Counted from the first letter of the stretch, positions 2,706 to 58,229 are shown. The stretch: DNA of 64,000 bases from Owenia fusiformis (GCA_903813345.2 CAIIXF020000001.1:7750001-7814000), one strand, 5' to 3'. The notes: generated by a model from the sequence alone, not told the origin. Numbers and translations: made by a program.

Positions 2706-2840
2706 GTTCCTTGGACACCCAACATTGTGAGACTCCTTCCAACTTTTTCTAAGTTACCATTTTACCACAATTTCAGTCTAGTACAATATAGGATAGATGG
2801 TGCTGACTGTAATAACTCTGTTTGCACTTCTTGTTACCAG

Positions 2841-2992
2841 GTGGGCATACAACAGAGATGTTGAGGTTACTAAGTGGCATGGGAGACAAGTACTACCCAA
2901 GATACTACATCATAGCAGACTCCGATAGAATAAGTCAAGAAAAAGCTATTGCTTTTGAAGAAAAACAACAGATTAACAAAGAATCTCAAAAT
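2841..2992 (+). CDS. ALG14: Internal exon of UDP-GlcNAc transferase subunit ALG14
   Basis: Translates GGHTTEMLRLLSGMGDKYYPRYYIIADSDRISQEKA, matching the ALG14 (S)GGHTTE...PRxYxxAxxD motif. Acceptor ttaccag|, donor |gtagg. No other exon seen in this contig. Confidence 0.85.
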
Positions 2993-3097
2993 GTAGGTTG
3001 CTGCGTCATTGAACAGCAATAGTCTTGCTTCAAGACCCCCCTCTTTCTCTCTTATCCACTTTACTACAACTGTTTTAATAGATAAGGGATTAGAGAG

Positions 3098-3597
3098 NNN
3101 NNNNNNNNNNNNNNNNNNNNNNNNNNNNNNNNNNNNNNNNNNNNNNNNNNNNNNNNNNNNNNNNNNNNNNNNNNNNNNNNNNNNNNNNNNNNNNNNNNNN
3201 NNNNNNNNNNNNNNNNNNNNNNNNNNNNNNNNNNNNNNNNNNNNNNNNNNNNNNNNNNNNNNNNNNNNNNNNNNNNNNNNNNNNNNNNNNNNNNNNNNNN
3301 NNNNNNNNNNNNNNNNNNNNNNNNNNNNNNNNNNNNNNNNNNNNNNNNNNNNNNNNNNNNNNNNNNNNNNNNNNNNNNNNNNNNNNNNNNNNNNNNNNNN
3401 NNNNNNNNNNNNNNNNNNNNNNNNNNNNNNNNNNNNNNNNNNNNNNNNNNNNNNNNNNNNNNNNNNNNNNNNNNNNNNNNNNNNNNNNNNNNNNNNNNNN
3501 NNNNNNNNNNNNNNNNNNNNNNNNNNNNNNNNNNNNNNNNNNNNNNNNNNNNNNNNNNNNNNNNNNNNNNNNNNNNNNNNNNNNNNNNNNNNNNNNN
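3098..3597. other. Assembly gap (500 N)
   Basis: Run of exactly 500 N. Confidence 0.99.
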
Positions 3598-3959
3598 TTT
3601 CGGCCTAACCTTCAAAATTATAACATGGGAATAAAGACCTCTCACCAAATTCTAAAATTAAGAGTTAGTTATTAATAAACAAGAGAAAACAATGAACAAA
3701 ATAAATATACAGAACACATATAAAAATGCCCCGTCATAACTGTCCAAAACAATATCTAGATGGTATGATTTCGTTCATGTCATGTGCCTTGTTGTTTTAG
3801 TAACTCTGAAGTTTCCCTTAATGAATTCACTGATTGGTGTGTTGCGTTAAATTGGTTCATGTCATGGATATGAACTGGTAGCCATCTTGACTAGTTGGTG
3901 TGATTGAGTATAAAAAGGGATGGCAACAACTCAGAAAGGGTATCTTTGTATAGGCTGAT

Positions 3960-7493: not shown

Positions 7494-8883
7494 CACGGTG
7501 TCCAACCCAAACGCTCTTACATGCACAACGGAATGTTTCATCATGGGCTTTCAATTAGAAGGGTATGCAACTCTGTGTAATAAGCATGAGACCTTCAAAA
7601 TGAGCAATGCCATGCTTGCATTTTATGGAAATATTTCATAAAGTATTAGATATTAATGTATATGTTTTAGTATTATTTTGAATAGAAATCAATTTTCAAT
7701 ATGATTAAAGCATAAGATATATTCAATCTCATGTAAAAGTAAACAAAAAAGACCAGAAAGAATAAGAGGTATCAAGATGTTCTCTTCGAGTATTGCATTG
7801 TGGGTAATTATTCAAGAACACATTCCAATAAAAACATAATTTGTGGGAGAATGTTCACTTTGTGTATTGTCATAATTATGATGAATTTCATTTTTTATTA
7901 GATTATCAACATGTATGGAGATAATCATGTTTTTATTTATGAGTTATTTCTTCAAATCATCCATAAAATGTAAAAATAAGATTTTCTTGGAATGTGCTAA
8001 GATTCTCCAATTTTGAAAACCCAAAGGCAATGTTTATGTATGAAATATTGGGAGTTGCCTACCCGTCTAGTTGAAAGCCCATGGTTTCATCCACGCGGAA
8101 ACGGGGCTAATGAAGATCCCACTTTGACTGTAAGTATTGTTTCATTAGTTTCTCTTACATATCACATGTTATGGTGACATATTATGTACCATTCGATGAA
8201 CAATACCCTGATCAAAGCTCCATAGTGTAGATCAAACAAATCTGAAGTTGACGAATTGACCACAAATTACGAATTAAATTAGTATTTATATGAAATTTGC
8301 TCTAAAACATAAAACTATTGACAAATAAACAAAAAGTTTATATGTGAATTAATCTTTCTCTTTTGATGCCAAGGGATACAATAGATCTCCTTGAAAAGGA
8401 AAGTTGAGCCTATTCCGCAGTGTTTCCAGTTCACTGTGTTCACCAGATCGCAGCATTTCTTGAATATGACTTTTAAGACTTGATTTTTTGTTATCAAATC
8501 ACGATTACGATAATGTATGGTGTGATCAAGGTTTGTAATTTGACCAAAATATACTCTGATGCTCAACTCGACTAGTCGCATGTCTCGACAAACAGGGTTT
8601 TGACCGGAAGAATGACAAATACGTTTATGAATTTTGATAACTATACTGCTTAAGACAGCTCTTCCTAATTGCTTCAAACGTCGACAGCCATCCAAGTACA
8701 ATATATCACACCTATCAAATGGTATACTTGAAATAAGTAACACATACTTCTTATTCCCATCATTGGGGAAATTGTCAGATGACTCATCATTTCCATTCGC
8801 CATACTCCAGAGCGTTTCTTTGTTTAGTTTCAGTAATGAAACGCTCAATCTTGCATGTAAGAGCGTTTGGGTTGGACACCGTG
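7494..8883. mobile_element. Non-autonomous element with CACGGTG termini (Transib/Chapaev-like)
   Basis: Perfect 32-bp TIR cacggtgtccaacccaaacgctcttacatgca. The flanks tcttt / tcctt fit a 5-bp TSD with one mismatch. Confidence 0.7.
7542..8083. mobile_element. P-element-like MITE nested in the CACGGTG element
   Basis: ~31-bp TIR catgggctttcaa.taga.gggta.gcaactc with CAT...ATG ends. 7-bp TSD gtttcat at 7535-7541 and 8084-8090. A solo TIR copy lies at ~39012. Confidence 0.75.
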
Positions 8884-35906: not shown

Positions 35907-36049
35907 AAATAAATAAATGACCATGGGCCTATAAGCGCGAAACCCCAACACTATTCTGATATAGGGTTGCATAAATTGATACATGACTCATCACTCATTG
36001 GAGCGATTTTATATCATATCGTATATTTTAATTTTTTTGAAAATTGAAA

Positions 36050-37760
36050 GACAGTTTTTAATTGATCCACTCTTGTATATATTTAACTTATCTTTTAAAT
36101 CTGGTATTTTCCCAGACGCCCTCAAATTGGCCAAAGTAACACCTGTATTTAAAAAAGGTGTCACTACAAATCCTTCGAACTATAGACCAATTTCAGTTTT
36201 ATCTGTATTTTCTAAATTGTTAGAAAAGCTCATGTACGCCAAACTCACTGGTTTTTTAGAACGTTTTGAAATTATTTTTACTTATCAATTTGGATTTCAG
36301 AAATTCAACTCTACCTACATGGCCATTTTATATTTCATTGAACAAATTCGAAAATCAACTGATTTGGGGAAAACGAGCATTGGCATAACATTAGATTTTT
36401 CCAAGGCCTTTGACACAATTAATCATGACATTTTGATACAAAAACTTGAATATTATGGCATCAGAGGAATAGCTAAGTCCTGGTTTGAAAGTTATTTAAA
36501 AGACCGCAAACAATATGTCACCATTAACAATTATGAATCTAAACAATCATCTCTAAATTGTGGTGTTCCGCAGGGCTCGGTTCTTGGACCACTATTATTT
36601 ATTCTTTACATAAATGATCTGCCTTTTGTTGCCCCTAATCTAAAATTTATTATGTTTGCTGATGACACCAATCTTCTTGATAGTGATTATGATTTAAATG
36701 AACTTATGACTAGAACTTATGCAAACTTGAATTCAATAGATGACTGGATAAAAGCAAACAAACTTTCACTTAATATTGGCAAAACCAATGCTATTCTATT
36801 TGGACCCCAAAAAAATCAAACAAATCTGAATCTTAAAATACGCAATGAGAACATAAATTTCCGGGAAAAAATTGACTTTCTTGGAATTATTATTGATAAA
36901 AACTTGAAATTTAAAGAGCACATAAAATCTGTTGAAACAAAGATTTCTCGCGTCATTGGTTCTCTTTATCACATTAAACATCTACTTCAAATAGACAGTT
37001 TCAAAACAATTTACTACTCATTGATACACTCTCAATTAAATTATTGCAACATAATCTGGGGTAACACATTTAAATCATTTTATGATCGTCTACATAAACT
37101 GCAGAAACAATTCTTAAGGCTAGCTTTAAATAAGGATAGACTTTCTCACTCCGCTCCCCTATTTAAAGATCTTAGAATATTAAATATTTTTGATGTCAAC
37201 AGATATTGTACTGGTCAGTTCATGTACAAAATCTTTAATAAGCACCCCAGTCTTCCAAAAAATCTATTTCAAGACTTGTTTGATATCAACATTAATATTC
37301 ATCATCATTACACAAGACAATTACATTATTTTCATATCCCTAAATGCTCCAAACTTTCCCTTCGCTATCTGGGTCCTAATCTTTGGAATGCTCTACCACA
37401 TGATATTAAAAAATGCTCCACTCTAAATATTTTCAAATCTTCATATAAAAAACTACTCATCTATCGATAATGTATAATACCAATTTCATACTATACTGTT
37501 GATTTTATACTGGTACCTATTTTTGTAACATTTTTACATTGTACATCCTTAGATTAATTGTTAATACCATTTTTATATACCTACATGTAACATAATATAA
37601 GTGTTTTCTTTTATATGTAGTCTAGTTGTCATTTTAATGATTTCTGTTAAACCGCAACATATACCCACTAGGGTGTCTAGCGGCTTGTTTTTATAGTGTA
37701 TATTATATAAGAATTATGAAATAAATAATTGAATTGAATTGAATTGAAATTGAAAAATTG
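36050..37760 (+). mobile_element. 5'-truncated CR1/L2-group LINE with open reverse transcriptase frame
   Basis: The ORF to 37470 contains NYRPISVL, LDFSKAFDTINH, GVPQGSVLGPLLF and FADD. No endonuclease is present. The 3' UTR ends in AATAAA and an (ATTGA)n tail. aaaattgaaa occurs at both ends (36040-36049, 37754-37763). Confidence 0.92.
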
Positions 37761-38232
37761 AAAAAAAAAAAATTCAACTGATCTGCTCTGGTTACGTTCC
37801 CAGCTCCGGTTACGTTCCTAAGTAATATTTTTAAAACTTTTTTTTTAATTAAACAAATCAGAGTCGTGTGAATAAGAAATAACAGAATTATTCAAAAGTA
37901 TAAGGACTATTCTGTACTTTTTTCAAAAGTCTATACTTAAATGTTGTGAAAAGTAATAATCGAAAAACCATCTTTCGGAGTAAAGTCCGACTGCGCCGAT
38001 TTCAATAACTTCGTACTTGAACAGAACTGGGTTCCAACAGAATTCCTACAAACTCATGAATGAAATAGTTATTGCATGGAATACTTACTTTTGTCAAAAT
38101 CAAAATAGAACTCTAGTTAAAAAATATATTGTGCTAAATTATTGCCATTTCTTAGTAAAATGTCGTTCTCCGGTACGTTGCCAAAATTATTCGATGGTAC
38201 CCCGTGTGTACAGTATATGCATCCTGTTTCAG

Positions 38233-38399
38233 ATAGCAGAAGTCTTGCTTGAGCATGCTTGTGATGCAAATGTCGGTGACTGCTTTGGACACACACCCCT
38301 ACACAGAGTGTCATCTAAAGGTCATAGCAAGGTGTTGAAGTTGTTACTACGCTATAATACCAATGTTAACACAAGAGATAGCCGAGGAAACACACCTCT
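38233..38399 (+). CDS. PSMD10: Gankyrin, next internal exon
   Basis: tttcag|ATA...CCTCT|gtaagt. Translates IAEVLLEHACDANVGDCFGHTPLHRVSSKGHSKVLKLLLRYNTNVNTRDSRGNTPL, continuing the 11597-11743 exon in phase 0. Confidence 0.85.
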
Positions 38400-39597
38400 G
38401 TAAGTTCTATGATTGGACCCCCACATGTAAATTGTAAATACGATTTTCAAATACACGATTCTCATATTAAAATAAACAGGACAATTTTTCTTTGTTAAAG
38501 CTTGGATAACTAGATTGGTAGAATCGAATAAGTTCAATTCAAGACTCCAGATTAAGACATTTTATCATAAACAATCCCAGACTTTGTTGAAAAGACCGAA
38601 AAGAACCTATAGACATGATTTATTTATAAGAAAATAATTGAATTTAAAAGAGATAATTCTAAAAGTAATGAAATTGACCTAGCTTTTGATTTTTGGTACT
38701 CAAAAGGGTCATGTGCAGTATGGCAGGTGATTTTGGAAAGCTGTATTTTTGATCAAGGGTATATTTCGACCATACATAGAACATTATATATTAAAACAAT
38801 ATCTTAACTTCAACAAAACTGCATAAATAGAATATGTTGAAGACTAGTACTGCCACGGAGTCTCCTTCCGGCCTGTTTGATTATTTGGCGTCTGTACCTT
38901 ACGTTTTGTTAGTTACATTGATAGATAGATCTACTGATCTATACTAGCTTATTGGATATGACTTTTTAAAATCCAGTTTATGATATATCTGGAAAGTTTC
39001 AATAGTTCAATCATGGGCTTTCAACTAGATGGTTCAATCAAATTGAAGTAATTCTGTAATTGTTCTGTTTCAATGTTAAATGCATCTGACCCCCTGTCTG
39101 TTAGTGTTATGAAAAATATGTTGTCTGCATTATTAGGGTTATCTGTGAATTGAGTAAGTTCAATAGGACAACATACATTCGAGTTGACAACATACACTTA
39201 TGATTTTTTAAATTATAGCCAAAATTTGCTGTTTAAAGAAACATATTCTCATAAAAATCTTCGACACTCTTAGACGACTGGGGAGGAAATGATCAAAGAA
39301 AATGTGAAAAAACACAACATTTTCCAACCAACTAATTATATGGGTAGATTGACTACAAAAAAATCGAGCACTATTCGAAAATCTTTTAACTAAGTTAAAT
39401 GTCTTCCTAAACAAACACACAAAAAATCAAACATGAAATCCTTAATGCATTCCTCAGATTATTTCTTTAAAACCTACATCATTGCAAACCTACATCTTTG
39501 TCTTTGCTTCAAATCTGTTAAATAGTGACAGTGTACATCTAAAGTGTACTACGGTTTATTTTGTCACTGTACCTTGTTGATGGTTAGGCGTGATATA

Positions 39598-40097
39598 NNN
39601 NNNNNNNNNNNNNNNNNNNNNNNNNNNNNNNNNNNNNNNNNNNNNNNNNNNNNNNNNNNNNNNNNNNNNNNNNNNNNNNNNNNNNNNNNNNNNNNNNNNN
39701 NNNNNNNNNNNNNNNNNNNNNNNNNNNNNNNNNNNNNNNNNNNNNNNNNNNNNNNNNNNNNNNNNNNNNNNNNNNNNNNNNNNNNNNNNNNNNNNNNNNN
39801 NNNNNNNNNNNNNNNNNNNNNNNNNNNNNNNNNNNNNNNNNNNNNNNNNNNNNNNNNNNNNNNNNNNNNNNNNNNNNNNNNNNNNNNNNNNNNNNNNNNN
39901 NNNNNNNNNNNNNNNNNNNNNNNNNNNNNNNNNNNNNNNNNNNNNNNNNNNNNNNNNNNNNNNNNNNNNNNNNNNNNNNNNNNNNNNNNNNNNNNNNNNN
40001 NNNNNNNNNNNNNNNNNNNNNNNNNNNNNNNNNNNNNNNNNNNNNNNNNNNNNNNNNNNNNNNNNNNNNNNNNNNNNNNNNNNNNNNNNNNNNNNNN
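39598..40097. other. Assembly gap (500 N)
   Basis: Run of exactly 500 N. Confidence 0.99.
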
Positions 40098-42216
40098 TGG
40101 ATATTTAGCCATTTGGCCAGAGATGTTATTGGCGTCCAGGGAGAGCTGCTAGGGAGATTGCAGTCTAGAGGCGCTTAGAGGACGTTTGTCAGAGTTTGTG
40201 AGTGTTAATCTAGTTTTATAATTCCTTTTTTGTGATAGAATTGAAAGGTTTTAACTCGATTCTTTGTAATTCAGCGTTGATGTTGGCGGTTGCATCATAC
40301 AGTTCCCACAATCCCTTGAAAGCCCGCCATCTTGAATGACTTCCGGTCCACGTGTAATTCCGCCATCTTGGATGACTTCCGGTCCACGTGTAGTTCAAGT
40401 CTAATCTCAGGTTTACTCCTCGGTATCTACCAGTGAGCTCAGAGTACTTGTTACTCTAAGCAGAACTACCAGAGAGTAAGCCAAGAGTAATCTGTGAGTT
40501 CGGAGAGTAACCTGGACCAGAGGAGTAAATGGCAGTGGCTAGGAGTAAAGAAGAATAGTGGGAGTAAAACCTTAGCAGATGACAGACGACTAAATCACGT
40601 TTACTCATTGGCCTTACAGTATCTACCAGTGAGCTTAGAGTACTTGTTACTCTAGGCAGAACTACCAGAGAGTAAGCTAAGAGTAATCTGTGAGAACGAG
40701 GAGTAAAGAACCGTGGTCGGGAGTAAAGAAGAGTAACTCGGGCTGAAGAAGAGTAATCCTGAGTAACCAGAACAGAGGAGAGAGCACAGCAGAGCGGCGA
40801 AGAGTAACTCGGGCTGAAGAAGAGTAATCCTGAGTAACCAGAACAGAGGAGAGAACACAGCAGAGCGGCGAAGAGTAAAGAAGAGTAACTCGGGCTGAAG
40901 AAGAGTAATCCTGAGTAACCAGAACAGAGGAGAGAGCACAGCAGAGCGGCGAAGAGTAAAGAAGAGTAACTCGGGCTGAAGAAGAGTAATCCTGAGTAAC
41001 CAGAACCGAGGAGAGAGTAAAGTAGAGCAGAGTAAAGCAGAGCAGAGTAAAGCAGAGCAGAGTAAAGCAGAGCAGAGTAAAGAGTAGCAGAGCAGAACAG
41101 AGTAAAGAGTAGCAGAGCAGAACAGAGTAAAGAGTACAGCAGAGACGAGAACAGAGTAAAGAGTAAGCAGAGCAGAATAAAGAGTAACCAGAGCAGAAAA
41201 GAGTAAAGAGTAAGCAGATCAGAGCGGAATAAAGAGTAACCAGAGCAGAATAAAGCAGAGCAGAGCGGAGTAAAGAGTAAGCAGAGCAGTGCAGAGTAAA
41301 GAGTAAGCAGAGCAGAACAAAGTAAAGCAGAGTGGATAGCAGAGACGAGGGTAGAGCAAAGAGTATACCAGAGCAGAACAGAGTAAAGAGTAAGCAGAGC
41401 AGATTAAAGAGTAAGCAGAGCAGATTAAAGAGTAAGCAGAGCAGTACAGAGTAAAGGGAAGCAGAGCAGTGCAGAGTAGTGAGTAAGCAGAGCAGTGCAG
41501 AGCAAAGAGTAAACAGAGTTGAACAGAGTAAACAGAGTTGAACAGAGTAAAGCAGAGTGGATAACAGAGACGAAAGTAAAGCAGAGCAGAACAGAGTAAA
41601 GAGTAATCAGAGCAGAATAGAGTAAAGAGTAAGCAGAGCAGAGCAGAACAGAGTAAAGCACAGTGGAAAGCAGAGACGAGGGCAGAGTAAAGAGTAAGCA
41701 GAGCAGAACAAAGTAAAGCAGAGCAGAGTAAAGCAGAGCCGAGACCATAGCAGAGTAGAGAGTAAAGAAGAGCAGAATATTGAGAGACAAGACCAGGGCA
41801 TATTAGAGAGCAATTCAGAGCAGCGTAAGCAGATCAGAGTAGAACAGAGCAGAGTGAAAGTAAAGCAGAGTAAATCAAGGCAGAGAACAGAAGAGTAAAG
41901 CAGAGTAACCCCTGAGCAGAGTGAAGAAGAGTAAAGCAGAGCAGAGTACAAACGAGAGAAGGGCAACAAGACAACTCAGAGTTAATTATTACATGGACAT
42001 TTGTGTTTTATTTGTTTTCAAAATTATAGTGTTAATAAATTATAAAAACTGTATATCTGTATTTTGTATGCATATGTGTAACCACCTCCCCTTTCAGTGA
42101 AAGCAGTACCACCAAACCAGGTCTGCGCCCACATAAGACCAGTGAGAATCCCATAATAAATAAATTGTTCGTGACCCGACCACAACCACACTACCAGATT
42201 TTGGCCAGGTCCGACA
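40098..42216 (+). repeat. 5' LTR (first ~640 bp lost at the gap)
   Basis: Aligns with 46328-48430 and ends ...ggtccgaCA. Confidence 0.92.
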
Positions 42217-42217
42217 T

Positions 42218-42235
42218 TGGTGGCAGTGGTGGGAT
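42218..42235 (+). promoter_or_regulatory. Primer-binding site complementary to the tRNA-Leu 3' end
   Basis: tggtggcagtggtgggat lies one base after the LTR. Its reverse complement atcccaccactgccaCCA matches the tRNA-Leu(TAG/AAG)-type 3' end. Confidence 0.85.
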
Positions 42236-42272
42236 TATTTGCTGACGGGGAACAAAGACTTAAGAGAAGAAA

Positions 42273-45260
42273 ATGGCTTCTAAACAAGAAGAAGGGCCTG
42301 ATGGTATAGTCTCCAGGATGGAAGGAGGACAACAGGAAGAGGAGTCTGCAGACAACACTGTGTTCTTCAAGGGGGACTACACCCAAGTGGACATGGAGCT
42401 AGATGATACAGTGCCAGGGATGTGTGGAGTAGATTCCACAAGAGAAGTGGAAGAAAATCCTGAAGGAGCAAGGTCCAAGACGAGTTATATGGTACCGGGA
42501 GTAAGGTATGGGATGACGCCATCGAGAGGCTTTCCTTTAACTTCGACTGTGCTGGAGGGAAGATCTCCGGGGGCTACCATGCCAACGGAACAGGAGTTAC
42601 CGAGTCAGCAACTCCAGATGTCTGTGTTACGCAGCCAGATGAAGGCACAAGCACAGCAAAACAGAACTTTGTATGAAGACTTGAGAAGAGAAGTGTACTC
42701 AGGGCAGGAAGACCTTCGAAGAGAACTACATTTGAGTCAAGGAGAGATACAGAAACAGATAGAGAGGCTGAATACAATCCAACAAGAGGCGCAACAAGAA
42801 TTCAAGAGCTTCCTGTCTGAAATAGTACAGCGCCTCCCTGCTGCTAAAGTTGACAGTCGCTTGACTCCTGAGAACTTGGAGAAGAAGCAAATGATGAGTA
42901 GTAGAAATACGGTGACTGCAAACTTGGAGCCAGAGCAAAAGAGTAGAGTAAGTTCACCGGCCCATGGAGAAGTGTGCTCTGGAATTTATATGAAGAAACC
43001 CTCACTACAGAGACAAGATGGATACAGTGGGAAAGAGTTGGCATCACATCTCAAGAGGGCATGGGTACCAGATACCAAGATGGGGGGTAACAGAGGGTCG
43101 GTATCAAAGGAGCGCCGGACAGGTTCCCATGAGCCATTGAGAGAGCCGGGAAGGTCTACTCCATTACTCCCTGCAGAGAGACAGAAGAGTACAGAACACA
43201 TCTCTAGGGCGCAGATGTCCCAGGGAGGAGATGGGGAGTACTATGTTACTGGAGACGTTGACAAGGGTTGGCAAAGGAGTAGATGCCATCTGCAACAGCA
43301 CTCTGCAGAGTCATATCTTGGACAGCTGGATGAAAAAAAACAAGATGATCTCAGGGATCATGCACCTGGCCTAGATGTGGATGAAGATAATGGAATAAGG
43401 CATCAGTCCAGAGGACTTTTAGATGAAATTGGTCCAAGACAGCGTTCAATAATGCAGGAAGATTCCCAGCCGAGTGGAAAGGTAGAAGAGGAGTCAAGTA
43501 CAATGCTCATGGCCAAGATGGTGGAAATGTGTTCAAAGTTGATAGAGTCTACCAAGAATCCTAATTCTCGAACAAGAATAAAGCCCACACAGACCTTTGA
43601 TGGCAGTGTGTCATGGGAAGATTACAGGGCCTACTTTGCCACCTGTGTGGAAAACAATGGTTGGACTCAGCAAGAGAAGAGGCAATATTTGGCAACAAAC
43701 CTCAGAGGAGATGCACAGCAGTTGGTCCTGGAGCTTGATGAAGGATACTCCTATGAAGATTTACTCCTGGCATTGGAAAAGAGGTTTGGCCCTGGTGGGA
43801 AGGCGGATGTCTATGAGGCTGAGCTATGCAGTCGCACCAGGAAGCCAAAAGAATCTCTTCAGAGTCTGGGACAAAGCATTCGACGCTTGACTACACTAGC
43901 CTACCCAGAGATGAGCAAGAAGGCCCAAGACCGTCTGGCCAGAAGAAGCTTCGAACAAGCCATACCAGATGATGACCTACGACAGGCCATTCACAGAAAG
44001 GACCCAGAAACCCTTGACAAAGCTATTGAAGTAGCTATAAAAGAAGAAAGCTACCAAGAGTCTGAGAGGATCCGAAGAGGCCTCAGACAAAAGAGAGATC
44101 ACAAAATCTTGCGGGTTGATGAGGAAGCTGATAGAAGTACTACATTGGAGCAAACCCTAAAGCTAATGGAGCAGAAGCTTGAAGCAATGAGTAAAGAAAT
44201 AGATGGCATCACAAACAGAGGATCTTCAAAACGTGTATTCACCTGTAGAAAGTGCTGGGAGGAGGGACATATCATCAGATGGTGTCCTATGATAACCTGT
44301 TACAATTGTAACCAACCTGGACATTTGTCATATGACTGCTCATTACCAGAGAAACCAAGAAGAGAGATGCATCCAGCGGCCAGAGACAACATAAACTCTA
44401 TGAGTTCTGTGAGGTTCTTGGCTGATTTCAAGACCCGAGAGGAGAAGAATACAACACCTGATGAAGAGGAAATTATGCTGTGTTCCTCCAGCCAAACACA
44501 GAAGAGAAATTGTTTACTAAAGAGTAAGCATACTCAGAGCAGGGATTTGGAGCAGAGGAAGAAGGAGGTGTTGTCTACTCCAAGTAACCAGCTTCAAGAG
44601 AGTAATTTCAAAAGTTGTACTATTGGGAAGCCACCTCAAGTGAGAAATGTGAGGAGAGTTACTTATGAGGGTAGCAAGGAAAGAGGAGTGCCTAATCGGA
44701 GTAAGAGGTTGCAGAGGAGTAAAAGAACACAACCTCCTAGAAGTTATAACCCGAAGAGTGATATGAAGAAGGTTACTCCAGCTTCTGAGTCTGTAAGGAG
44801 TGATTATGATGATTCTACTCATAGAGGCCCCCAAAAGAGTAGAAGAGTGGAACCCTGTCAGAGATGGATGTTCAACAGGAGAAGAGCCAATGGTTGGATG
44901 AATAGAGAAGATGACTTGGGGAAGAGTAAAGATTCTAAGAGTAAGAAGATGCCATCCAATGGGGAAGAAGGGATATTTTCTGTCCATGGATCCTTGGTGA
45001 GTGATAGAATAGAGTCTGTTTTTAGGAGAGGTGTGGCGATGAGTAAGATGGAGATGCCAAGTTTGAAAAGTGAAGGGATTGGACTTACTCAGAAGAATAA
45101 GGAAGGAAGAGCAAGAGACTACCGAGATGGAAGGACAAGATCTCCAAGGTCCATCAAAAGAGCTAGGGGTCACTATGAGTACTCAGACCATAGGAACAGA
45201 AACTTCCGTCCCAGCCAGTTGTGTGTGCACATAGAGAGTGATAAGTTTATGAACTCTTAA
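42273..45260 (+). CDS. gag: 995-aa Gag-like protein: N-terminal coiled coil, capsid-like domain, two CCHC knuckles, basic low-complexity tail
   Basis: KPTQTFDGSVSWEDYRAYF...NGW...LATNLRGDA...LEKRFG is an invertebrate Gypsy capsid pattern. Zinc knuckles are CRKCWEEGHIIRWC and CYNCNQPGHLSYDC. No D(T/S)G protease or RT/IN motifs follow the knuckles. Confidence 0.88.
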   Translation: MASKQEEGPDGIVSRMEGGQQEEESADNTVFFKGDYTQVDMELDDTVPGMCGVDSTREVEENPEGARSKTSYMVPGVRYGMTPSRGFPLTSTVLEGRSPGATMPTEQELPSQQLQMSVLRSQMKAQAQQNRTLYEDLRREVYSGQEDLRRELHLSQGEIQKQIERLNTIQQEAQQEFKSFLSEIVQRLPAAKVDSRLTPENLEKKQMMSSRNTVTANLEPEQKSRVSSPAHGEVCSGIYMKKPSLQRQDGYSGKELASHLKRAWVPDTKMGGNRGSVSKERRTGSHEPLREPGRSTPLLPAERQKSTEHISRAQMSQGGDGEYYVTGDVDKGWQRSRCHLQQHSAESYLGQLDEKKQDDLRDHAPGLDVDEDNGIRHQSRGLLDEIGPRQRSIMQEDSQPSGKVEEESSTMLMAKMVEMCSKLIESTKNPNSRTRIKPTQTFDGSVSWEDYRAYFATCVENNGWTQQEKRQYLATNLRGDAQQLVLELDEGYSYEDLLLALEKRFGPGGKADVYEAELCSRTRKPKESLQSLGQSIRRLTTLAYPEMSKKAQDRLARRSFEQAIPDDDLRQAIHRKDPETLDKAIEVAIKEESYQESERIRRGLRQKRDHKILRVDEEADRSTTLEQTLKLMEQKLEAMSKEIDGITNRGSSKRVFTCRKCWEEGHIIRWCPMITCYNCNQPGHLSYDCSLPEKPRREMHPAARDNINSMSSVRFLADFKTREEKNTTPDEEEIMLCSSSQTQKRNCLLKSKHTQSRDLEQRKKEVLSTPSNQLQESNFKSCTIGKPPQVRNVRRVTYEGSKERGVPNRSKRLQRSKRTQPPRSYNPKSDMKKVTPASESVRSDYDDSTHRGPQKSRRVEPCQRWMFNRRRANGWMNREDDLGKSKDSKSKKMPSNGEEGIFSVHGSLVSDRIESVFRRGVAMSKMEMPSLKSEGIGLTQKNKEGRARDYRDGRTRSPRSIKRARGHYEYSDHRNRNFRPSQLCVHIESDKFMNS

Positions 45261-45673
45261 TTTAGTTGCACTGATAGATCGGTGTTTACAGATTGAGGAG
45301 TAAATGTTAAAATGGGTATATTTAAAGACATTTAGTGATGTAGTTGTATATGAACAGTGATAGACAGGAGTATATAAGTAATTTTAAGATGTTTGCTTGT
45401 ATCACATGTGCATTTGTACAAATATTAGTGGTAAAGGAGCAGTTTTATTTAGAAACCTGTAGTTTATTGTTATTTTAATATGTGATATTTATATGAAGAG
45501 ATATTTAAGCTTTTTGAGTTAATGTAAGGTGATGATGAGTAATTGTAACATCATACACTCCGAGATGTTAAATGTTTGAATATGTTGTTTTTGTAGTTCA
45601 TAGAATTGTGGATTAAGAAAGTTGGTTACTCATTAGTTGAGTTAAGAGTAGCAATGCGAGGGCGCATTGAGTT

Positions 45674-45684
45674 AAGATGGGGGG
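45674..45684 (+). promoter_or_regulatory. Polypurine tract
   Basis: aagatgggggg immediately before the TG start of the 3' LTR. Confidence 0.75.
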
Positions 45685-45686
45685 TG

Positions 45687-48430
45687 TGTGGGAAATTTAG
45701 AAATTCCCCACTTATTTTTTTTTTTTTAATTAAAATGTAATAATATTTGGTGAAGTAAGAAGTTTATATTTATGTCAGTAAAACTTCATGTACTGTGAGC
45801 GAGTTAAGGAGTAACCTAGGAGTAACCATAAACTCAGTGAGTAAGTTGGGAGTAGGAGTAAGAGTAACCTTACTCTTTGCTTGTGCAGGAACCCTTGTCC
45901 TAGAATTGGTCAACCCATAGGAGAAATATGCCACATGGTTATGAGTCACCAGGAATTAGAGGCTACTTGATTGACATTGCTATGGTGATTTCCCACAATG
46001 CATCACCAAATGGAGTAAACACACCAGCTCAGTCCAGCTGCAGCCAATCAGATAGCTTCCCTATGCATCTCATTAGTCAGGTGAGACAGGAGATAATCTG
46101 ATCACCTGATGTTAGTCTAGCTCAAGAAGTTGAAGTGTGAGGACCTGTAGTGTCATTTTACAGAAGCTGGCTCAAGAAGTTGATGGAAGATTGTGATTTT
46201 CCTGGTGGAATTGATGTCAATTCAAGGAGTGTTGAACTCTCAAAAGGAGGATAGAGTTTAACCAAGTGACGGACGAAGTTTATTGGATTATTTCACACTG
46301 TTTGTGGCTGAAACAGACAGTGACACGTGGATATTTAGCCATTTGGCCAGAGATGTTATTGGCGTCCAGGGAGAGCTGCTAGGGAGATTGCAGTCTAGAG
46401 GCGCTTAGAGGACGTTTGTCAGAGTTTGTGAGTGTTAATCTAGTTTTATAATTCCTTTTTGTGATAGAATTGAAAGGTTTTAACTCGATTCTTTGTAATT
46501 CAGCGTTGATGTTGGCGGTTGCATCATACAGTTCCCACAATCCCTTGAAAGCCCGCCATCTTGAATGACTTCCGGTCCACGTGTAATTCCGCCATCTTGG
46601 ATGACTTCCGGTCCACGTGTAGTTCAAGTCTAATCTCAGGTTTACTCCTCGGTATCTACCAGTGAGCTCAGAGTACTTGTTACTCTAAGCAGAACTACCA
46701 GAGAGTAAGCCAAGAGTAATCTGTGAGTTCGGAGAGTAACCTGGACCAGAGGAGTAAATGGCAGTGGCTAGGAGTAAAGAAGAATAGTGGGAGTAAAACC
46801 TTAGCAGATGACAGACGACTAAATCACGTTTACTCATTGGCCTTACAGTATCTACCAGTGAGCTTAGAGTACTTGTTACTCTAGGCAGAACTACCAGAGA
46901 GTAAGCTAAGAGTAATCTGTGAGAACGAGGAGTAAAGAACCGTGGTCGGGAGTAAAGAAGAGTAACTCGGGCTGAAGAAGAGTAATCCTGAGTAACCAGA
47001 ACAGAGGAGAGAGCACAGCAGAGCGGCGAAGAGTAACTCGGGCTGAAGAAGAGTAATCCTGAGTAACCAGAACAGATGAGAAAACACAGCAGAGCGGCGA
47101 AGAGTAAAGAAGAGTAACTCGGGCTGAAGAAGAGTAATCCTGAGTAACCAGAACAGAGGAGAGAGCACAGCAGAGCGGCGAAGAGTAAAGAAGAGTAACT
47201 CGGGCTGAAGAAGAGTAATCCTGAGTAACCAGAACCGATGAGAGAGTAAAGTAGAGCAGAGTAAAGCAGAGCAGAGTAAAGCAGAGCAGAGTAAAGAGTA
47301 GCAGAGCAGAACAGAGTAAAGAGTAGCAGAGCAGAACAGAGTAAAGAGTACAGCAGAGACGAGAACAGAGTAAAGAGTAAGCAGAGCAGAATAAAGAGTA
47401 ACCAGAGCAGAATAGAGTAAAGAGTAAGCAGATCAGAGCGGAATAAAGAGTAACCAGAGCAGAATAAAGCAGAGCAGAGCGGAGTAAAGAGTAAGCAGAG
47501 CAGTGCAGAGTAAAGAGTAAGCAGAGCTGAACAAAGTAAAGCAGAGTGGATAGCAGAGACGAGGGTAGAGCAAAGAGTATACCAGAGCAGAACAGAGTAA
47601 AGAGTAAGCAGAGCAGATTAAAGAGTAAGCAGAGCAGATTAAAGAGTAAGCAGAGCAGTACAGAGTAAAGGGAAGCAGAGCAGTGCAGAGTAGTGAGTAA
47701 GCAGAGCAGTGCAGGGCAAAGAGTAAACAGAGTTGAACAGAGTAAACAGAGTTGAACAGAGTAAAGCAGAGTGGATAACAGAGACGAAAGTAAAGCAGAG
47801 CAGAACAGAGTAAAGAGTAATCAGAGCAGAATAGAGTAAAGAGTAAGCAGAGCAGAGCAGAACAGAGTAAAGCACAGTGCAAAGCAGAGACGAGGGCAGA
47901 GTAAAGAGTAAGCAGAGCAGAACAAAGTAAAGCAGAGCAGAGTAAAGCAGAGCCGAGACCATAGCAGAGTAGAGAGTAAAGAAGAGCAGAATATTGAGAG
48001 ACAAGACCAGGGCATATTAGAGAGCAATTCAGAGCAGCGTAAGCAGATCAGAGTAGAACAGAGCAGAGTGAAAGTAAAGCAGAGTAAATCAGGGCAGAGA
48101 ACAGAAGAGTAAAGCAGAGTAACCCCTGAGCAGAGTGAAGAAGAGTAAAGCAGAGCAGAGTACAAACGAGAGAAGGGCAACAAGACAACTCAGAGTTAAT
48201 TATTACATGGACATTTGTGTTTTATTTGTTTTCAAAATTATAGTGTTAATAAATTATAAAAACTGTATATCTGTATTTTGTATGCATATGTGTAACCACC
48301 TCCCCTTTCAGTGAAAGCAGTACCACCAAACCAGGTCTGCGCCCACATAAGACCAGTGAGAATCCCATAATAAATAAATTGTTCGTGACCCGACCACAAC
48401 CACACTACCAGATTTTGGCCAGGTCCGACA
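45687..48430 (+). repeat. 3' LTR, ~2.74 kb, with internal purine-rich tandem repeats
   Basis: TGtggg...ccgaCA ends (the start could be 45685). Contains ~70-80-bp units and an AGAGT/AGAGC-based array (~46960-48170). Confidence 0.9.
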
Positions 48431-48873
48431 GTATGTATGAACACAAGATAGTCACTGCGATAAATTAACAACCAGTAACTACTACTTTCCCCATGTCACA
48501 TGTTGATCTTCCCAGTAGAATATATAAGTTCTAATTCGTTCTAGATAAGTTCCAATGAGTGACATCAAGTTAAATCTTAGTTTTGCTCTTACAACCCGTC
48601 ACAGAAATACCATTCTGGATGATCACAAAATGTAATGTTTGGCGATTTTAACATATTGTAGTAATTATTTAGGAACTAAATTAAATGGTAACCATCATCA
48701 GGCCTCGATATGCTATCAAATGGTGTCTTCTGATTGCTGAATGAATGATGGAAGTGTATTATTTAAGTCATTGGCAATTATAAAGGAATGGAAACAAAAC
48801 TTCCTTCAAAGCCAATTTTGGATATTTTCTATGAATTACTCTACGAGCTTATACGTAAACATCTCAATTTCAG

Positions 48874-49077
48874 CTGGAGGCACGATGTTCTTTGAAAGAA
48901 GACTCGGATGTTTACACGACAACAGAAACCCAGAAATAACAGAATTTATCAAAAGTATTCGTAATATCTTAACGGGTAGCGACGTGTTTTTCTTCCTTTC
49001 TCCTCAACTTGCGAAAACTCTGAGACTACCTGCGTGGAAACAATTGGAGCAAACCTTGGACACCATGTTCCGTATTT
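48874..49077 (+). CDS. Internal exon of a mitochondrial-clan cytochrome P450 (CYP27/CYP24-like)
   Basis: tttcag|...|gtaagt, phase 1-1, 204 nt. Translates GGTMFFERRLGCL...EFIKSI...PAWKQLEQTLDTMF, matching the FE(K/R)RLGCL E-F-G helix region of mitochondrial CYPs. Confidence 0.75.
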
Positions 49078-49343
49078 GTAAGTTGACCTTAGAACTCCAA
49101 AACATCGTTGACAAGTTGAACAAAGATGATACACAGTACACACCTATTTCTTCTCTGATCAAATGGTCTGCCACAAATGCTGGTTTAAACGGACAAAAAC
49201 CATGATAATATGATGTATCATTGTTTTATTTTATGTCACCCACATTTCTTAACATGAGAACGTATGTGTCTCTGCGTGCTCTATGTTGATGGTTTTAATT
49301 TCATTTTAATTTCATTAAGATACATAGATCCGGGAAACCCATT

Positions 49344-50097: not shown

Positions 50098-50597
50098 NNN
50101 NNNNNNNNNNNNNNNNNNNNNNNNNNNNNNNNNNNNNNNNNNNNNNNNNNNNNNNNNNNNNNNNNNNNNNNNNNNNNNNNNNNNNNNNNNNNNNNNNNNN
50201 NNNNNNNNNNNNNNNNNNNNNNNNNNNNNNNNNNNNNNNNNNNNNNNNNNNNNNNNNNNNNNNNNNNNNNNNNNNNNNNNNNNNNNNNNNNNNNNNNNNN
50301 NNNNNNNNNNNNNNNNNNNNNNNNNNNNNNNNNNNNNNNNNNNNNNNNNNNNNNNNNNNNNNNNNNNNNNNNNNNNNNNNNNNNNNNNNNNNNNNNNNNN
50401 NNNNNNNNNNNNNNNNNNNNNNNNNNNNNNNNNNNNNNNNNNNNNNNNNNNNNNNNNNNNNNNNNNNNNNNNNNNNNNNNNNNNNNNNNNNNNNNNNNNN
50501 NNNNNNNNNNNNNNNNNNNNNNNNNNNNNNNNNNNNNNNNNNNNNNNNNNNNNNNNNNNNNNNNNNNNNNNNNNNNNNNNNNNNNNNNNNNNNNNNN
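50098..50597. other. Assembly gap (500 N)
   Basis: Run of exactly 500 N. Confidence 0.99.
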
Positions 50598-53223: not shown

Positions 53224-55221
53224 CTGAAACAATCAAGAAACTGTTATTTGGATGGTTTGTATGTTCCTAACTTCCTGCAGAAACTCTCATTGCATAAATA
53301 TTTATTTAATTCTGACTAAAGAGTTCTTGGTCACTCACCACTGTCAGTGCATCATGGCAATTTCCATTTTTCTACCCTTTCTCAAACAAACAAACCTTTA
53401 TTCCTTTTTAAACGTAGTATTTTGCCATAAATAACCAATATTGCAGCCATGACATTCTGTTATTTAGTCCAGTTTTAGGAAGAAAATCATGTATATATTT
53501 ACTTTTGAAAAAATCCTTGTAATTGAGACATCTCCAACAGGAGAATTTGGGAAAGCCATTGTACATGTATATTTATAAAAGAGAATATGGTAATTAATTA
53601 GATTTCCTCAAACTCTAAAGTAGGGCTATCACTCGCCTTGCCCAAGTCGGTCTCTTTTACTTATCTTGATTTCTATTATGACCGCCTTGTACCAATGAGA
53701 AACCCACGTGCTTAACAGACTCAATGTTTATGTCGGTAAATTTGACCAATCAATGATGACCCTGCAGTGTTAGCTCATTATTATGCACGGTCAAGACAAG
53801 TACACTTTTCACGAACAAATCCTCCGGCAAATCTTGCACAATTCATCATGAAAATTCAAATATTTTATCACATAAATATCAATCAGGGTTTAGTGGATGC
53901 CGGAGCATCAATCGGATACCCGGAGGTGAGAAGATTTCAACAAGAAAAGTTGAAAAGATCTCTGAAATTTTCGAACATATTAGCTAGATCTAGGCCGAGA
54001 TTCAGATCTATCACTGAATTAGATCGACAACTACATGGACGAAGTCTTCATGCATTTTCATCGCGAATTCAGTTTTAAATCAAAATTGGATGGCATGATT
54101 TAATTTATATTGATGACTGCTTACATTCCAATGTACATTTAATTACATAATATTCTGAAGAAATACTCGATCAGATCATTGAATTTCAAGTCATAGACGG
54201 GTAGTTTGCTTTGTTTATGCGGGTAAACCTGAAAACGTTTTGATTGGCCAATCAGCCTGAAGTCACACGTTGTGTCTAGGTGTTATGTCAATCAATATGG
54301 TTTCGCGTTACCCCTGACAGCGTAGGAATTATGGAAATCTCGTTGTTTTATATGTGAAAAATACCCCTAATAACTGTTTCATCTTTATCTTTATTATATA
54401 TGCTGTAGGGTGTTTCACTTTTCGACTTTTTTTCAAATCAAGATGGAGTTTTGTCCAGTTGGCCTCCTGATAAAGGAAAGCAAGCACAAAAAATTTCAAC
54501 CCAAATCCGTTGAAGTTTAGACCTCCCCCTACCACACTTTTTGATGCCCATTCGCTACCATGTTAATAATCGTCTTAAAATTGCAGCAAGGGTCATTTTG
54601 ATCATGTTTGAGACCCATGTTCTACCCATGAACCCTAATGCTGTACGCTAGCCTAGTTGCAGCTTACAGACAATTTGAAGAAACTTTGTCTTAGTAAGCC
54701 AATTAGGTCTGAAATTTCGAGTTCTGAAGGCAGTTTCCGAAATCCGTTCCATTCTGATTCCGTGACAGCTCTACTCAAAAGCAAGAGGACACCTGAAAAT
54801 TGGTCCAGTAGCTATTTTGACAGCAGGGGAAAAATGTGACTACAGAATGATTAATTCTCTTTCATATACCATTGACCTTCTCAGCAAAAGAACAACCACA
54901 TTCTGCACCATATCAAATATCATTAAAATTACACTGAAAATTGATTTGTCCCCTGCTAAAATGGTGACATATCTATTTAATAATTTGAGATATTTTAACC
55001 AACTAAGATTTTGGGACGATATTGATAATAAAAACAATACTGGGGGTCTTGGGGGAGATAACTGACACTGCTCTCCATCTAAAATTGTAAGACTTGCTGT
55101 GGTTGCTCACATGCCAATTAATAAGCTGTCTTATGCTTCATCCACACTGTGATATAATGAAGCATGAAGAATCAGAGTTCATCAAAAATGTTTTCAATAA
55201 AATGTAAGTACATGATCCTAC

Positions 55222-56240
55222 CTGTTCTTGCGTGTCTTGGGGTATCTGGGGTGATATGTCTACACATTCACACAGGATCCCTTGTTGGGGGTACGCACAG
55301 TAATCGGCTACCAGAGGCTTCAGTGAATCCTTAGATATCATCTCATGATTCCCGTAGTCCACGAAAACAACCCCAGCCTTAGGGCCCTGGATACTCTCAA
55401 CCCTAGCTCGATACCACATATTATCCTCAGAGAATTTGGCACAACAGAAATCACCAATGTTTGTGTACAAGCGGGGCAGCATGGCAACATTGGCCTCATA
55501 GTAGTCGTTCAGTTTTTCTTGGAGTTTTTCAAGTTGTTCAGCAGGAAAGCGTGTTAACTGACCAAAGAACTTAGGTGGAGCATGTGATGCAGTAACATAG
55601 AGTTCTTCAGATGTGCCTACAAACACGGGGGGTGCTTGGATCTTGGGCCTATTCACTGCAGAGGACTGAGGCTTGGAGGGTGGCGTTACAGGCGTGAGTG
55701 GGCGTCGCATAACCCTAGTAGCTTCCTCCCTGGGTCCATTTGATGTAACATCACTTGCAGATTGATTCTGCATGATTTCTTGGTTAAGATTGATATCTCT
55801 GCTACCATTGGTGTCATATAACATAACAGTATACACTCCTTCATAGGCGCTTTCTACATGTGCTACCAGAGGTACCTTGGAGGCATATCTATTCAGAACC
55901 TCCAGTTGGGAACTCGAAAACACCTGTATCCCTTTCAGCCTAAACTGAACTGCTTGCATTGGCAAATGTATATGTTCAACTCTGAGGGACCTCACATTGT
56001 GTTTCGGTACCATGGCAACATCGCCAAAGTCAACAAATCTGACAAATACATCAACATTTGTTACATCTGTGATCTCACCTCTGTAGTAACGTCCATCACG
56101 AGGACATTTAGCCACACATTGTAGTCCTTGACTAAGATGATCAGGTGGAGGACTGTTAGCGCTATATAGACTTGTTTGTAACTCTACCATGAGATTGTCC
56201 AGATCTGGAGCCGTCCTAATCAGTTGACCATAAACTGCAC
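55222..56240 (-). CDS. Multi-Tudor gene, coding exon 2 (two extended Tudor domains)
   Basis: ttgcag|GT...CAG|gtagga. Contains DGRYYRG..FVDFGD and DNMWYRA..FVDYGN aromatic-cage motifs. Confidence 0.88.
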
Positions 56241-56583
56241 CTGCAAAATGAAAAAAAAAATCTTTTTAGAGATTTCAACAATTAATCGACAGTAACTGAG
56301 TCGTTGGCGTTCAGGAGTTTTTAGGTAATAAACCCATTAAGTGACCCATAAAACACCCGACAACTGCAAGTGGCAAGTAGAGACAAGGAGTCAACATGCA
56401 AAATACACTACCTGCTATTTGTTGCCAACTCCCAAACAACAACTCCCGAACACCATTCATAAAACAGTTGGAGACCTTATTCTAGGACTAGGTACAAGCA
56501 CTTAGCATGGACATGAAATCCCAGTTAGATTCAATGTTAATGTGCATGATCACTGAACATTGTAATAACAAAATCAGCCATAC

Positions 56584-57895
56584 CTGTTTGTTCAACATTG
56601 GAGATACATATATCTTCATAGACCCCAACACGTAGGATTTGTGATGTGAACTGAGGAACAGAATCGTTTGCTACCACAGCAATCTGTTGTCTGGTTGGTA
56701 GAATACCTGGTGAAATTGCTCTCGGAACAAACTGAGGTGCCCCAGGATTCAGCTTGATGTCACCATACTTAACTCCTGTAGATACATCCTTTAACTCTAC
56801 TACACACTTTTTACCAGCTGAGATAATGGTGGCTTCAAGATCATTATTGTCTGTGAGATTTTCTAGTGTTTCGCATTTTGGATCAGGCACTGAGCACTCA
56901 ACAGCCATTGCGGGTAGCCTATAGAACTGGTATGATAACAATTTGATTTCATCAGCTGTCTTGACATCAGCATTTCCATAGTCAATGAATCGAACTACAT
57001 AGTTAACAGACTGGCTTGAGCCTTCAACATTGACTGCTGTAACTACTGCTCTGTGGTATGCATCGTTGTCTTTGAATTTGACAGCACAGAATGTTCCTTC
57101 ATCAATATAGTCAACAGCTGGTGGTTGTTGTTTTGCCATTGCAAAAATACCATCTAATTCAGACATCATTGTATCTAAAGCGTCTTCAAATGATTTCAGT
57201 TGCAGCCAGAATTTGGAATTGGAAACATAAAACATCATGTAAACTGGATATGTCTGATCTTGTTCTAAGGGTAGCGGTTGGATAATGTTTTCTCCCAAAT
57301 GTTTGTTGCTATATGGTATGCCGATATCTGATGTCACCAATTCATCGACAAGTATATTATTTGATCCAATTCCATCAAAAAGTCTCATGGTTAGTTTTCT
57401 GGGTGGGATGTTGTGCAAAACTTCACCAGTGAATTCACCGTACTCTAAACTCTGACACAAGGATGTCATTTCTTTCGCTGTCCAACATTTTTCATTTCTA
57501 GGAAGTAAACCGCCAAGTACACACTCTGTCGCTTGAGGAGGTATAGTAAAATGTTCTGGTGAGCCAGGCCGCATTTCTGTTTTAGCAACCGTGGCTTTGT
57601 TTCCATAGTCAATGAAGAAAACCCTTACGCTTCGGGATTCGATACTATCAACTCGTGCACGATACCATTTGTTGTCCTCATGAAATTTAGCCCAACACAG
57701 ATGACCAACCACAGGTTCATATTGAGCTTCAACACTATTTTGTACCTTAGCAGCGAACAAGTCTGTCATATGTCCAACCTTTTCAGCATTGTCTGAATCC
57801 AACTGTGCCCAAAAATGACAAAATTGTCCACGATTTTCCACTCCGGTGATAAACAAATCAACCTTTTCTCCTTTCTTCAGCTTTGTCGACGCCAT
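56584..57895 (-). CDS. Multi-Tudor protein (TDRD6/TDRD15/TDRD1-like), first coding exon
   Basis: Start gcaATGG. Tudor motifs DNKWYRA..FIDYGN and DAYHRA..FIDYGN. The donor cag|gtatgg in phase 1 joins exon 2 in frame. Confidence 0.88.
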
Positions 57896-58229
57896 TGCAC
57901 CTGTTTGGTTTTCTAAGTGATGCTTTTAAGTGTAATTGATATTGAAGTATCAAAAAACATTAATAATATCACCAGCACTAAAGAGTAAATTCGAAAAACG
58001 ACAGAAATATCTAGTATTTTAACTTTTCAAAGTCCGCCATAGTGGCACGTGTGATGTAGTCTTCCCATCATTCTTGATAGCGCGAAATTCAAATTCAGGG
58101 GATCGATCAATTTCAATAAAATGGAAATTACCCGATGGACCATTTGCTACATAGATGAAAAAATAGATGGCAACATATGTATTGGTAGGAGTCAGATTCA
58201 AGGATTTAGGACTGGAAAAATGAAGGTTA

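Follow-up and report, generated by a model that had tools for sequence, protein, structure and literature searches.

A pol-less Ty3/Gypsy-lineage element with giant long terminal repeats and a single gag reading frame in Owenia fusiformis

The window analyzed here is a stretch of 64,000 nucleotides from Owenia fusiformis (GCA_903813345.2, CAIIXF020000001.1:7750001-7814000), and all positions are counted from its first letter. Positions 40098-48430 are occupied by an element that consists of two direct long terminal repeats (LTRs), a primer binding site (PBS), one long open reading frame (ORF) for a Gag protein, an AT-rich spacer and a polypurine tract (PPT), all on the plus strand. The element is a derivative of the Ty3/Gypsy lineage that lacks pol, and not an autonomous member of that lineage.

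An initial annotation of the window had placed the start of the element at 40098. This position turned out to be the first base past a scaffold gap of 500 N (39598-40097), i.e., an assembly boundary and not the true end of the element, and, owing to the gap, the entire 5' flank is lost and the 5' LTR is short of about 641 bp. Thus, 8,333 bp are visible (40098-48430), while about 8.96 kb are expected of the complete element; the predicted full copy of about 9.0 kb would comprise two LTRs of about 2.74 kb each and an interior of 3.47 kb. The window contains three gaps (3098-3597, 39598-40097 and 50098-50597), each of exactly 500 N, and the pieces bounded by them measure exactly 36,000 and 10,000 bp. 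The gaps look like cuts made by the scaffolder rather than natural contig ends, in which case the order of the pieces depends on scaffolding alone. A repeat search found no further pieces of the element elsewhere in the 64-kb window.

The 3' LTR is complete (45687-48430, 2,744 bp), although its start is possibly at 45685; alignment and motif positions show that it begins with TGTGGG and ends with CCGACA. The visible part of the gap-cut 5' LTR, delimited by repeat finding and global alignment (40098-42216, 2,119 bp), has the same CCGACA end, and the LTR termini are therefore TG...CA. Global alignment of 40098-42216 with 46328-48430 yielded an identity of 99.62% over 2,103 aligned columns. The differences that had been counted by eye in the initial annotation were exact: 8 substitutions (3 transitions and 5 transversions) and two indels, one of 1 bp and one of 15 bp, the latter being a single unit of the period-15 array AGAGTAAAGCAGAGC. 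Given that the LTRs are nearly identical, the element is young and its last reverse transcription was recent. The Kimura two-parameter distance between the LTRs is 0.0038, which corresponds to an insertion age (K/2r) of 0.2-1.9 million years if neutral changes accumulate at 1e-9 to 1e-8 per site and year, a rate that we assumed and that is not derived from the host.

Tandem repeats make up about 1.2 kb of the LTR. In the 3' copy, repeat finding located this core at 46950-48155, where 81-bp units repeated 3.9 times are followed by purine-rich arrays with periods from 15 to 206 bp. Near the LTR end (48255-48374), motif positions point to a candidate TATA box (TATAAA at 48255) and a candidate poly(A) signal (AATAAA at 48369), an arrangement that suggests a very long U3 and a short R-U5. 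The hexamer GAGTAA is over-represented in the window, with 180 copies where 34.6 would be expected, and about 70 of them fall in each LTR (40400-41940 and 45800-48150). Nearly all of the copies are on the sense strand of the element and within the tandem arrays, and they resemble a run of 5' splice-site-like GTAAG motifs. A 36-bp LTR unit is tandemly doubled at 46553-46625, with the palindrome CACGTG in each copy and a third CACGTG at 46324; these palindromes are possible regulatory sites.

The PBS, TGGTGGCAGTGGTGGGATT (42218-42236), begins 1 nt past the LTR end. The assignment to tRNA-Leu made in the initial annotation is supported by a natural tRNA: once the complement of CCA is set aside, the remaining 16 nt are perfectly complementary to the 3'-terminal 16 nt of a tRNA-Leu(CAG) gene (L007, 8240-8316). 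It should be noted that this reference is a gene of a viral contig and not the host's own tRNA. The 16-mer has 21 exact matches in viral contigs, only one of which falls within a tRNA gene, namely that of tRNA-Leu(CAG). The reference comes from L007, an IMG/VR contig of 298 kb on which tRNA-Phe and three tRNA-Leu genes are clustered at 7528-8490; no tRNA gene was found in the 64-kb window itself.

Downstream of the ORF, the spacer of about 410 bp and the PPT that had been described earlier were both recovered. The spacer is a non-coding segment of 413 bp (45261-45673) that is AT-rich and C-poor by composition, has stops in every frame and shows no codon periodicity (p=0.99); it is covered in both contig runs introduced below (X1 and X2). 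The whole segment between the ORF and the 3' LTR (45261-45686) is depleted in C on the sense strand, with 6.8% C and 37.6% T. The PPT, AAGATGGGGGG (45674-45684), lies directly upstream of the 3' LTR, whose TG...CA termini follow. The element retains all cis elements for replication, i.e., the LTR ends, the PBS, the PPT and, probably, an LTR promoter and a poly(A) signal.

The single gag ORF, identified by ORF scan, Pfam and HMMER, occupies 42273-45260 (stop included) and encodes 995 aa. It is uninterrupted, as had been claimed, and its ATG is found 3 codons past an in-frame stop. With Pfam, only two zinc knuckles of the nucleocapsid type were above threshold; they have the pattern CX2CX4HX4C and lie at aa 658-671 and 676-689 (44244-44339). 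Further analyses of aa 400-720 with HMMER revealed 8,074 representative relatives at E<=1e-3, of which 140 reached E<=1e-30, with a top identity of 45%; most of the top 150 relatives are 300-600 aa long. The closest Atlas cluster with a recorded taxon was mostly molluscan, which is a lead only.

Structure prediction, suggested as a check in the initial annotation, gave a two-lobed capsid fold at aa ~440-607 (43590-44093), where the predicted local distance difference test score (pLDDT) is mostly >=90. The model of the Gag core, built from a 71-sequence alignment, has a mean pLDDT of 85.7, and its top structural matches are all retroelement capsids: PNMA2 (E 7.8e-5), followed by dArc1, MLV, Arc, Ty3, HIV and Copia. 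Given this fold together with the zinc knuckles, the product of the ORF is a genuine capsid-nucleocapsid Gag. The full-length model has a mean pLDDT of 55.7. In its N-terminal extension, which has coding periodicity (p=1.7e-6), a helical hairpin or coiled coil is predicted at aa 111-187 (42603-42833, pLDDT 71-86). The pLDDT is below 50 at aa 1-108, 190-411 and 704-995, and these regions may be disordered, for which the low scores are weak evidence where the alignment is shallow.

Past the knuckles, in the place where pol would begin, the ORF continues as a basic, serine-rich tail of 305 aa (44343-45257) with a pLDDT below 50 and no detectable relative. BLASTP against the 150 Gag relatives found no match to the tail and a single N-terminal match at E=0.9. 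The word-based protein search found no match to the tail among proteins of 167-534 aa, nor to the whole ORF among proteins of 547-1,742 aa; the Atlas search with the tail gave no usable match. A single-protein scan of metagenome contigs gave 73 pattern matches, none of which was confirmed. The frame of the tail is free of stops, while the remaining forward frames contain 15 and 36, and none of 20,000 shuffles left it open; its composition also differs between codon positions (chi-square 42.9, p=1.2e-7). As an open, periodic frame with no likeness to pol, the tail is coding, or was so until very recently, and is unrelated to pol.

The absence of any protease, reverse transcriptase (RT), RNase H or integrase remnant, which had been noted by eye, was upheld. 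A Pfam search of the three forward frames of 44343-45682 returned no family at E<=10, and none was found in the translation of the tail. The best tblastn match from the 150 relatives that lies wholly downstream of 44340 is a low-complexity match on the minus strand (E=0.011). The minus-strand matches at 45015-45257 were dismissed as low-complexity noise, because the element's own Gag matches nothing there. Among the 13 of the top 150 that are longer than 730 aa, 10 were scanned; 6 of these carry a Gypsy-type aspartic protease 45-90 aa past the knuckle, and 4 have the knuckle only. Of the 6 protease-bearing relatives, two also have RT, accompanied in one case by RNase H, and an integrase C-terminal domain is found in one. 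Because the long Gag relatives carry protease, RT, RNase H and integrase domains in the Ty3/Gypsy order, the lineage of the element is Ty3/Gypsy. Membership in BEL/Pao, a group with a DUF1759-type Gag and a pol bearing an A17 protease, was considered and rejected, as DUF1759 reached only E=0.034 and 14.6 bits against a cut-off of 25.4, and the relatives have Gypsy-type proteases and the integrase C-terminal domain.

To examine the interior in other data, two contig runs from different studies (X1 and X2) and two raw RNA runs were compared with 41950-46950; altogether, 24 sequencing runs, all with one organism label, are listed, 20 of which contain part of the stretch, with no RNA run listed among the indexed ones that do. 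X1 and X2 each cover 30 of the 30 bins of 41950-46950, and a perfect-match contig spans the ORF end and stop codon (45116-45276). No single piece is longer than 564 bp, so that the contigs give local and not long-range continuity. The X1 pieces (285) divide into 149 at >=99%, 78 at 95-99% and 58 at 90-95% identity, and the X2 pieces (257) into 86, 102 and 69 in the same classes. Over 42545-42932, contigs with 0 and with 34 differences were found at equal depth (199 and 193), and at 44955 nine contigs show a different letter. Such diverged contigs at matching depth indicate that several diverged copies of the interior exist. In X1, the spacer has a depth similar to that of gag, which implies that more than one copy has the same layout downstream. 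The presence of the pol-less interior in two independent contig sets argues against a misassembly as well as against a strictly unique sequence.

The LTR edges are also backed by depth and by RNA. The summed word depth rises from about 280 to 1,600-3,900 at 45687 and falls from 4,900 to 600 at 42216, and RNA reads have loose ends at both edges: 6 reads leave the LTR end at 42216 into differing sequences (agreement 0.59), and 3 reads enter the LTR start at 45687 from other sequences. Reads that run off both LTR ends confirm the boundaries and show that other insertion sites exist. In addition, only the last 114 bp of the LTR (42103-42216) are common to one DNA contig of X1 and 3 RNA reads (X22), the sequence upstream being different; a related LTR family has the R-U5 end in common and is a possible lead to a helper. 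The RNA reads that match the compared stretch number 79 and 60 among about 12.7 and 11.5 million sampled, which amounts to weak transcription. In most of them the first mate is on the minus strand, and they would represent sense RNA if the libraries were of the usual stranded type.

We propose, as the reading that we find somewhat more probable than the others taken together, that the element is a non-autonomous LTR retrotransposon of the Ty3/Gypsy (Metaviridae) type that has retained gag and borrows Pol from a relative. The LTR would drive the genomic RNA, which would be translated into Gag; the RNA would then be packaged and reverse-transcribed from a tRNA-Leu primer, and the Pol proteins for reverse transcription and integration would come in trans from an autonomous relative that recognizes the same ends. 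In such a scheme a helper that supplies Pol presumably exists, and Gag is presumably used by the element itself. The RNA that was copied in the last insertion was itself, in our moderately confident view, already pol-less, because no pol remnant is left, the ORF ends in a clean stop, its tail is coding-like and the spacer has gag-like depth. When the initial annotation described a recently mobile animal element with its own capsid and with Pol borrowed from a Gypsy helper, it was right about the capsid, the lineage, the youth and the lack of pol, while the helper is a matter of inference.

The initial annotation went further and regarded the element as a stable, satellite-like retroelement rather than a broken copy. 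The reading of a stable family with borrowed Pol has partial support: given the neutral-looking variants, the frame-breaking tail deletions and the low interior depth that are weighed below, a stable satellite-like lineage is something that we infer rather than a result. The broader proposal of an animal lineage of capsid-encoding satellite retroelements, in which the pol-less RNA propagates, an enlarged Gag builds or helps to build the particles and a Gypsy helper provides Pol, seems doubtful to us. If it were true, the element would be a parasite of a parasite and might also depress its helper, and it would be a natural setting in which to study the reason for which a non-autonomous element retains a capsid, be it a cis packaging preference or competition with the helper. 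Either way, what lies at this locus is a fairly ordinary kind of genomic parasite that is unusual in its size and in its host.

Several observations weigh against a Gag-only element that borrows its Pol, and most of them fit the view that, through an internal deletion or a recombination event, pol disappeared from an autonomous Gypsy copy or a small recent subfamily, which has since become immobile. The other variants would then be decaying siblings or solo LTRs, with no propagating Gag-only lineage, and the element would be an ordinary decaying transposon copy. In perfect-match contigs, the depth of the LTR is 896 and that of the interior 116-243, values that are relative between LTR and interior and imply no absolute copy number. 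An LTR depth several-fold above that of the interior means that LTRs exceed the 2:1 ratio of intact elements, as if most copies were solo LTRs; the Gag-bearing copies are probably few and may be very few. Among the variants are tail deletions of 334 and 116 bp, which are not multiples of three and leave those copies without the full ORF, as well as deletions of about 158 bp around the start codon and of 161 bp in the spacer. The ORF variants look neutral: the 27 best-supported ones fall at codon positions one, two and three 8, 9 and 10 times, and 7 are synonymous and 20 non-synonymous, i.e., 26% synonymous compared to 21% expected by chance, with no sign of coding constraint, although this is a small and uninformative sample of the 215 differences over the compared stretch (175 of them unlisted). 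Only 10 of the 79 and 11 of the 60 RNA reads reach an identity of >=99% with this copy, and most transcripts therefore derive from other copies or relatives. The 10-kb piece is cut inside the 5' LTR, which leaves the placement of the locus and the 5' end to scaffolding, and no target-site duplication, which in this lineage would measure 4-6 bp, is readable because the 5' flank is lost in the gap (the 3' flank starts with GTATG). The helper, as said, is postulated, and incomplete Gypsy copies are the norm in a marine annelid for which 178 LTR-flanked Gypsy elements are reported, 30 with all domains and 148 without at least one (PMC8220671). Nevertheless, with LTRs that are 99.6% identical, a deletion after insertion would have to be very recent; the 995-aa ORF is intact with a clean stop, no pol fragment stands beside any putative breakpoint, the tail is coding-like and unrelated to pol, and the depth of the spacer in X1, close to that of gag, speaks for more than one copy of the same layout. 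We therefore regard the deletion derivative as a possible but distinctly less probable explanation than a gag-retaining element with borrowed Pol.

The remaining explanations are weaker still. That Gag was retained because it acts on the host or on other elements, for instance as a dominant-negative or competing capsid acting on helper particles, would suit the long intact ORF with its extra modules (the predicted coiled coil and the basic tail with coding periodicity) and the presence of the domesticated capsids PNMA2 and Arc among the nearest solved folds, and parasite-of-parasite dynamics are documented for the cattle ERVK C and D elements (PMC10924933). The intact LTRs, PBS and PPT, the diverged copies with broken tails and the neutral-looking variants are more in keeping with a mobile element than with a gene under selection, and we consider such a role unlikely. 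Least probable is an assembly artefact, i.e., a chimeric or collapsed contig in which two elements are joined, one contributing gag and the other the 3' end. The assembler or scaffolder evidently struggled here, as the element lies on a piece of exactly 10,000 bp between 500-N gaps, whose left cut falls within the 5' LTR, and tandem repeats fill about 1.2 kb of the LTR. Against an artefact stand the two runs of different studies, whose 30 of 30 covered bins include the junctions between ORF end and spacer and between spacer and LTR, the 149 of 285 X1 pieces at >=99% identity and the perfect-match contig over the stop codon (in pieces of <=564 bp); furthermore, tail and spacer have no common repeat that could cause a false join. 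The reading to which we return is thus that of a non-autonomous Gypsy element with its own Gag.

The neighborhood of the element contains several unrelated features. A LINE-type (long interspersed nuclear element) RT fragment (RVT_1, E 2e-33) is found at 35980-37470, given as 2.6 kb upstream of the gap; after it, in the same orientation, comes an ankyrin-repeat exon at about 38230-38400. This RT was considered as a displaced pol and rejected, as it is a lone LINE-type RT next to an ankyrin exon and is accompanied by neither RNase H nor integrase. On the same 10-kb piece, 311 bp downstream of the 3' LTR, lies a cytochrome P450-like exon (48741-49205; a weak Pfam match, E 0.0025), and the insertion may have occurred within or next to a P450 gene. 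Two long Tudor-domain exons on the minus strand (55138-57925) are separated from the element by about 7 kb, provided that the pieces are ordered correctly in the scaffold. Their matches are metazoan TDRD proteins only (TDRD1/4/6/7, 22-36% identity); the host is an animal. The TDRD family belongs to the transposon-silencing PIWI-interacting RNA (piRNA) pathway.

Compared to autonomous Ty3/Gypsy elements with a Retrotrans_gag or Ty3-type capsid, the element shares a homologous Gag core (<=45% identity), the capsid fold, the CCHC knuckles, the TG...CA ends and tRNA priming, but it has no pol, and its Gag is longer than usual by a factor of two to three. Its LTR is also far above the 100-500 bp stated to be usual for LTR retrotransposons (PMC6238403). 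A domesticated gag gene of the PNMA, Arc or RTL type, which would occupy a fixed host locus and lack LTR, PBS and PPT, was rejected, given the near-identical LTRs, the PBS, the PPT and the multiple diverged copies; the likeness to such genes is in fold only. Like the element, the Troyka elements of marine animals, 70 of which are reported to be non-autonomous, include non-autonomous LTR elements of marine invertebrates (PMC12440569). Troyka is characterized in that report by CG...CG termini, a 3-bp target-site duplication, LTRs of 100-400 bp and CX2CX8-10HX4C fingers, and membership was rejected, as the element has TG...CA termini and CX2CX4HX4C knuckles.

Pol function borrowed from competent relatives is known from defective endogenous retroviruses (ERVs) of animals, such as the D-type of cattle ERVK[2-1-LTR], mouse ETn (with MusD as helper) and koala RecKoRV, which are described as trans-complemented (PMC10924933). 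As in our element, LTRs and flanking cis regions are kept while pol function is missing, and a central segment is replaced by unrelated sequence. The cattle D-type, however, is described as having no intact ORF (PMC10924933), whereas the element has a full-length Gag ORF; moreover, they are vertebrate retroviruses and the element is a Gypsy-type retrotransposon. Similarly, LARD elements are large, non-autonomous and partner-dependent but, as characterized in the plant literature, have no coding capacity, in contrast to the 995-aa Gag ORF found here, and BARE-2, also partner-dependent, is the mirror image of the element in that Gag was lost and the rest was kept (PMC4350172).

The closest parallel is with the TR-GAG elements of plants, which likewise consist of LTRs, a PBS, a PPT and one ORF similar to Gag only and are presumed to be mobilized in trans (PMC4350172). 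Coffea TR-GAG1 even shares the tRNA-Leu PBS (PMC4350172). As defined in that account, TR-GAG elements are smaller than 4 kb and present in at least 2 genome copies, with LTRs of a few hundred bp and a Gag of about 430 aa (PMC4350172). At about 9 kb, with 2.74-kb LTRs, a 995-aa Gag and an animal host, the element is outside that size range; as to copy number, the diverged interior variants in two runs give indirect evidence of redundancy. In the literature that we searched on TR-GAG, gag-only, pol-lacking and non-autonomous LTR elements, no Gag-only animal family is described, Repbase, Dfam and supplements, which may hold entries, being outside this search; the TR-GAG papers found are, by title, all on plants. 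A survey of molluscs called elements by LTRs of 80-1,500 bp and by similarity to RT and RNase H (PMC6238403), and with this LTR ceiling and screen, such a survey would miss the element. Surveys that are based on RT and limited in LTR length would in general be blind to elements of this kind, and their abundance in invertebrates would hence lie outside current counts. If the Gag-only form does propagate, the strategy known from plant TR-GAG elements, an own capsid combined with stolen enzymes, would also be used in animals, on a very different scale.

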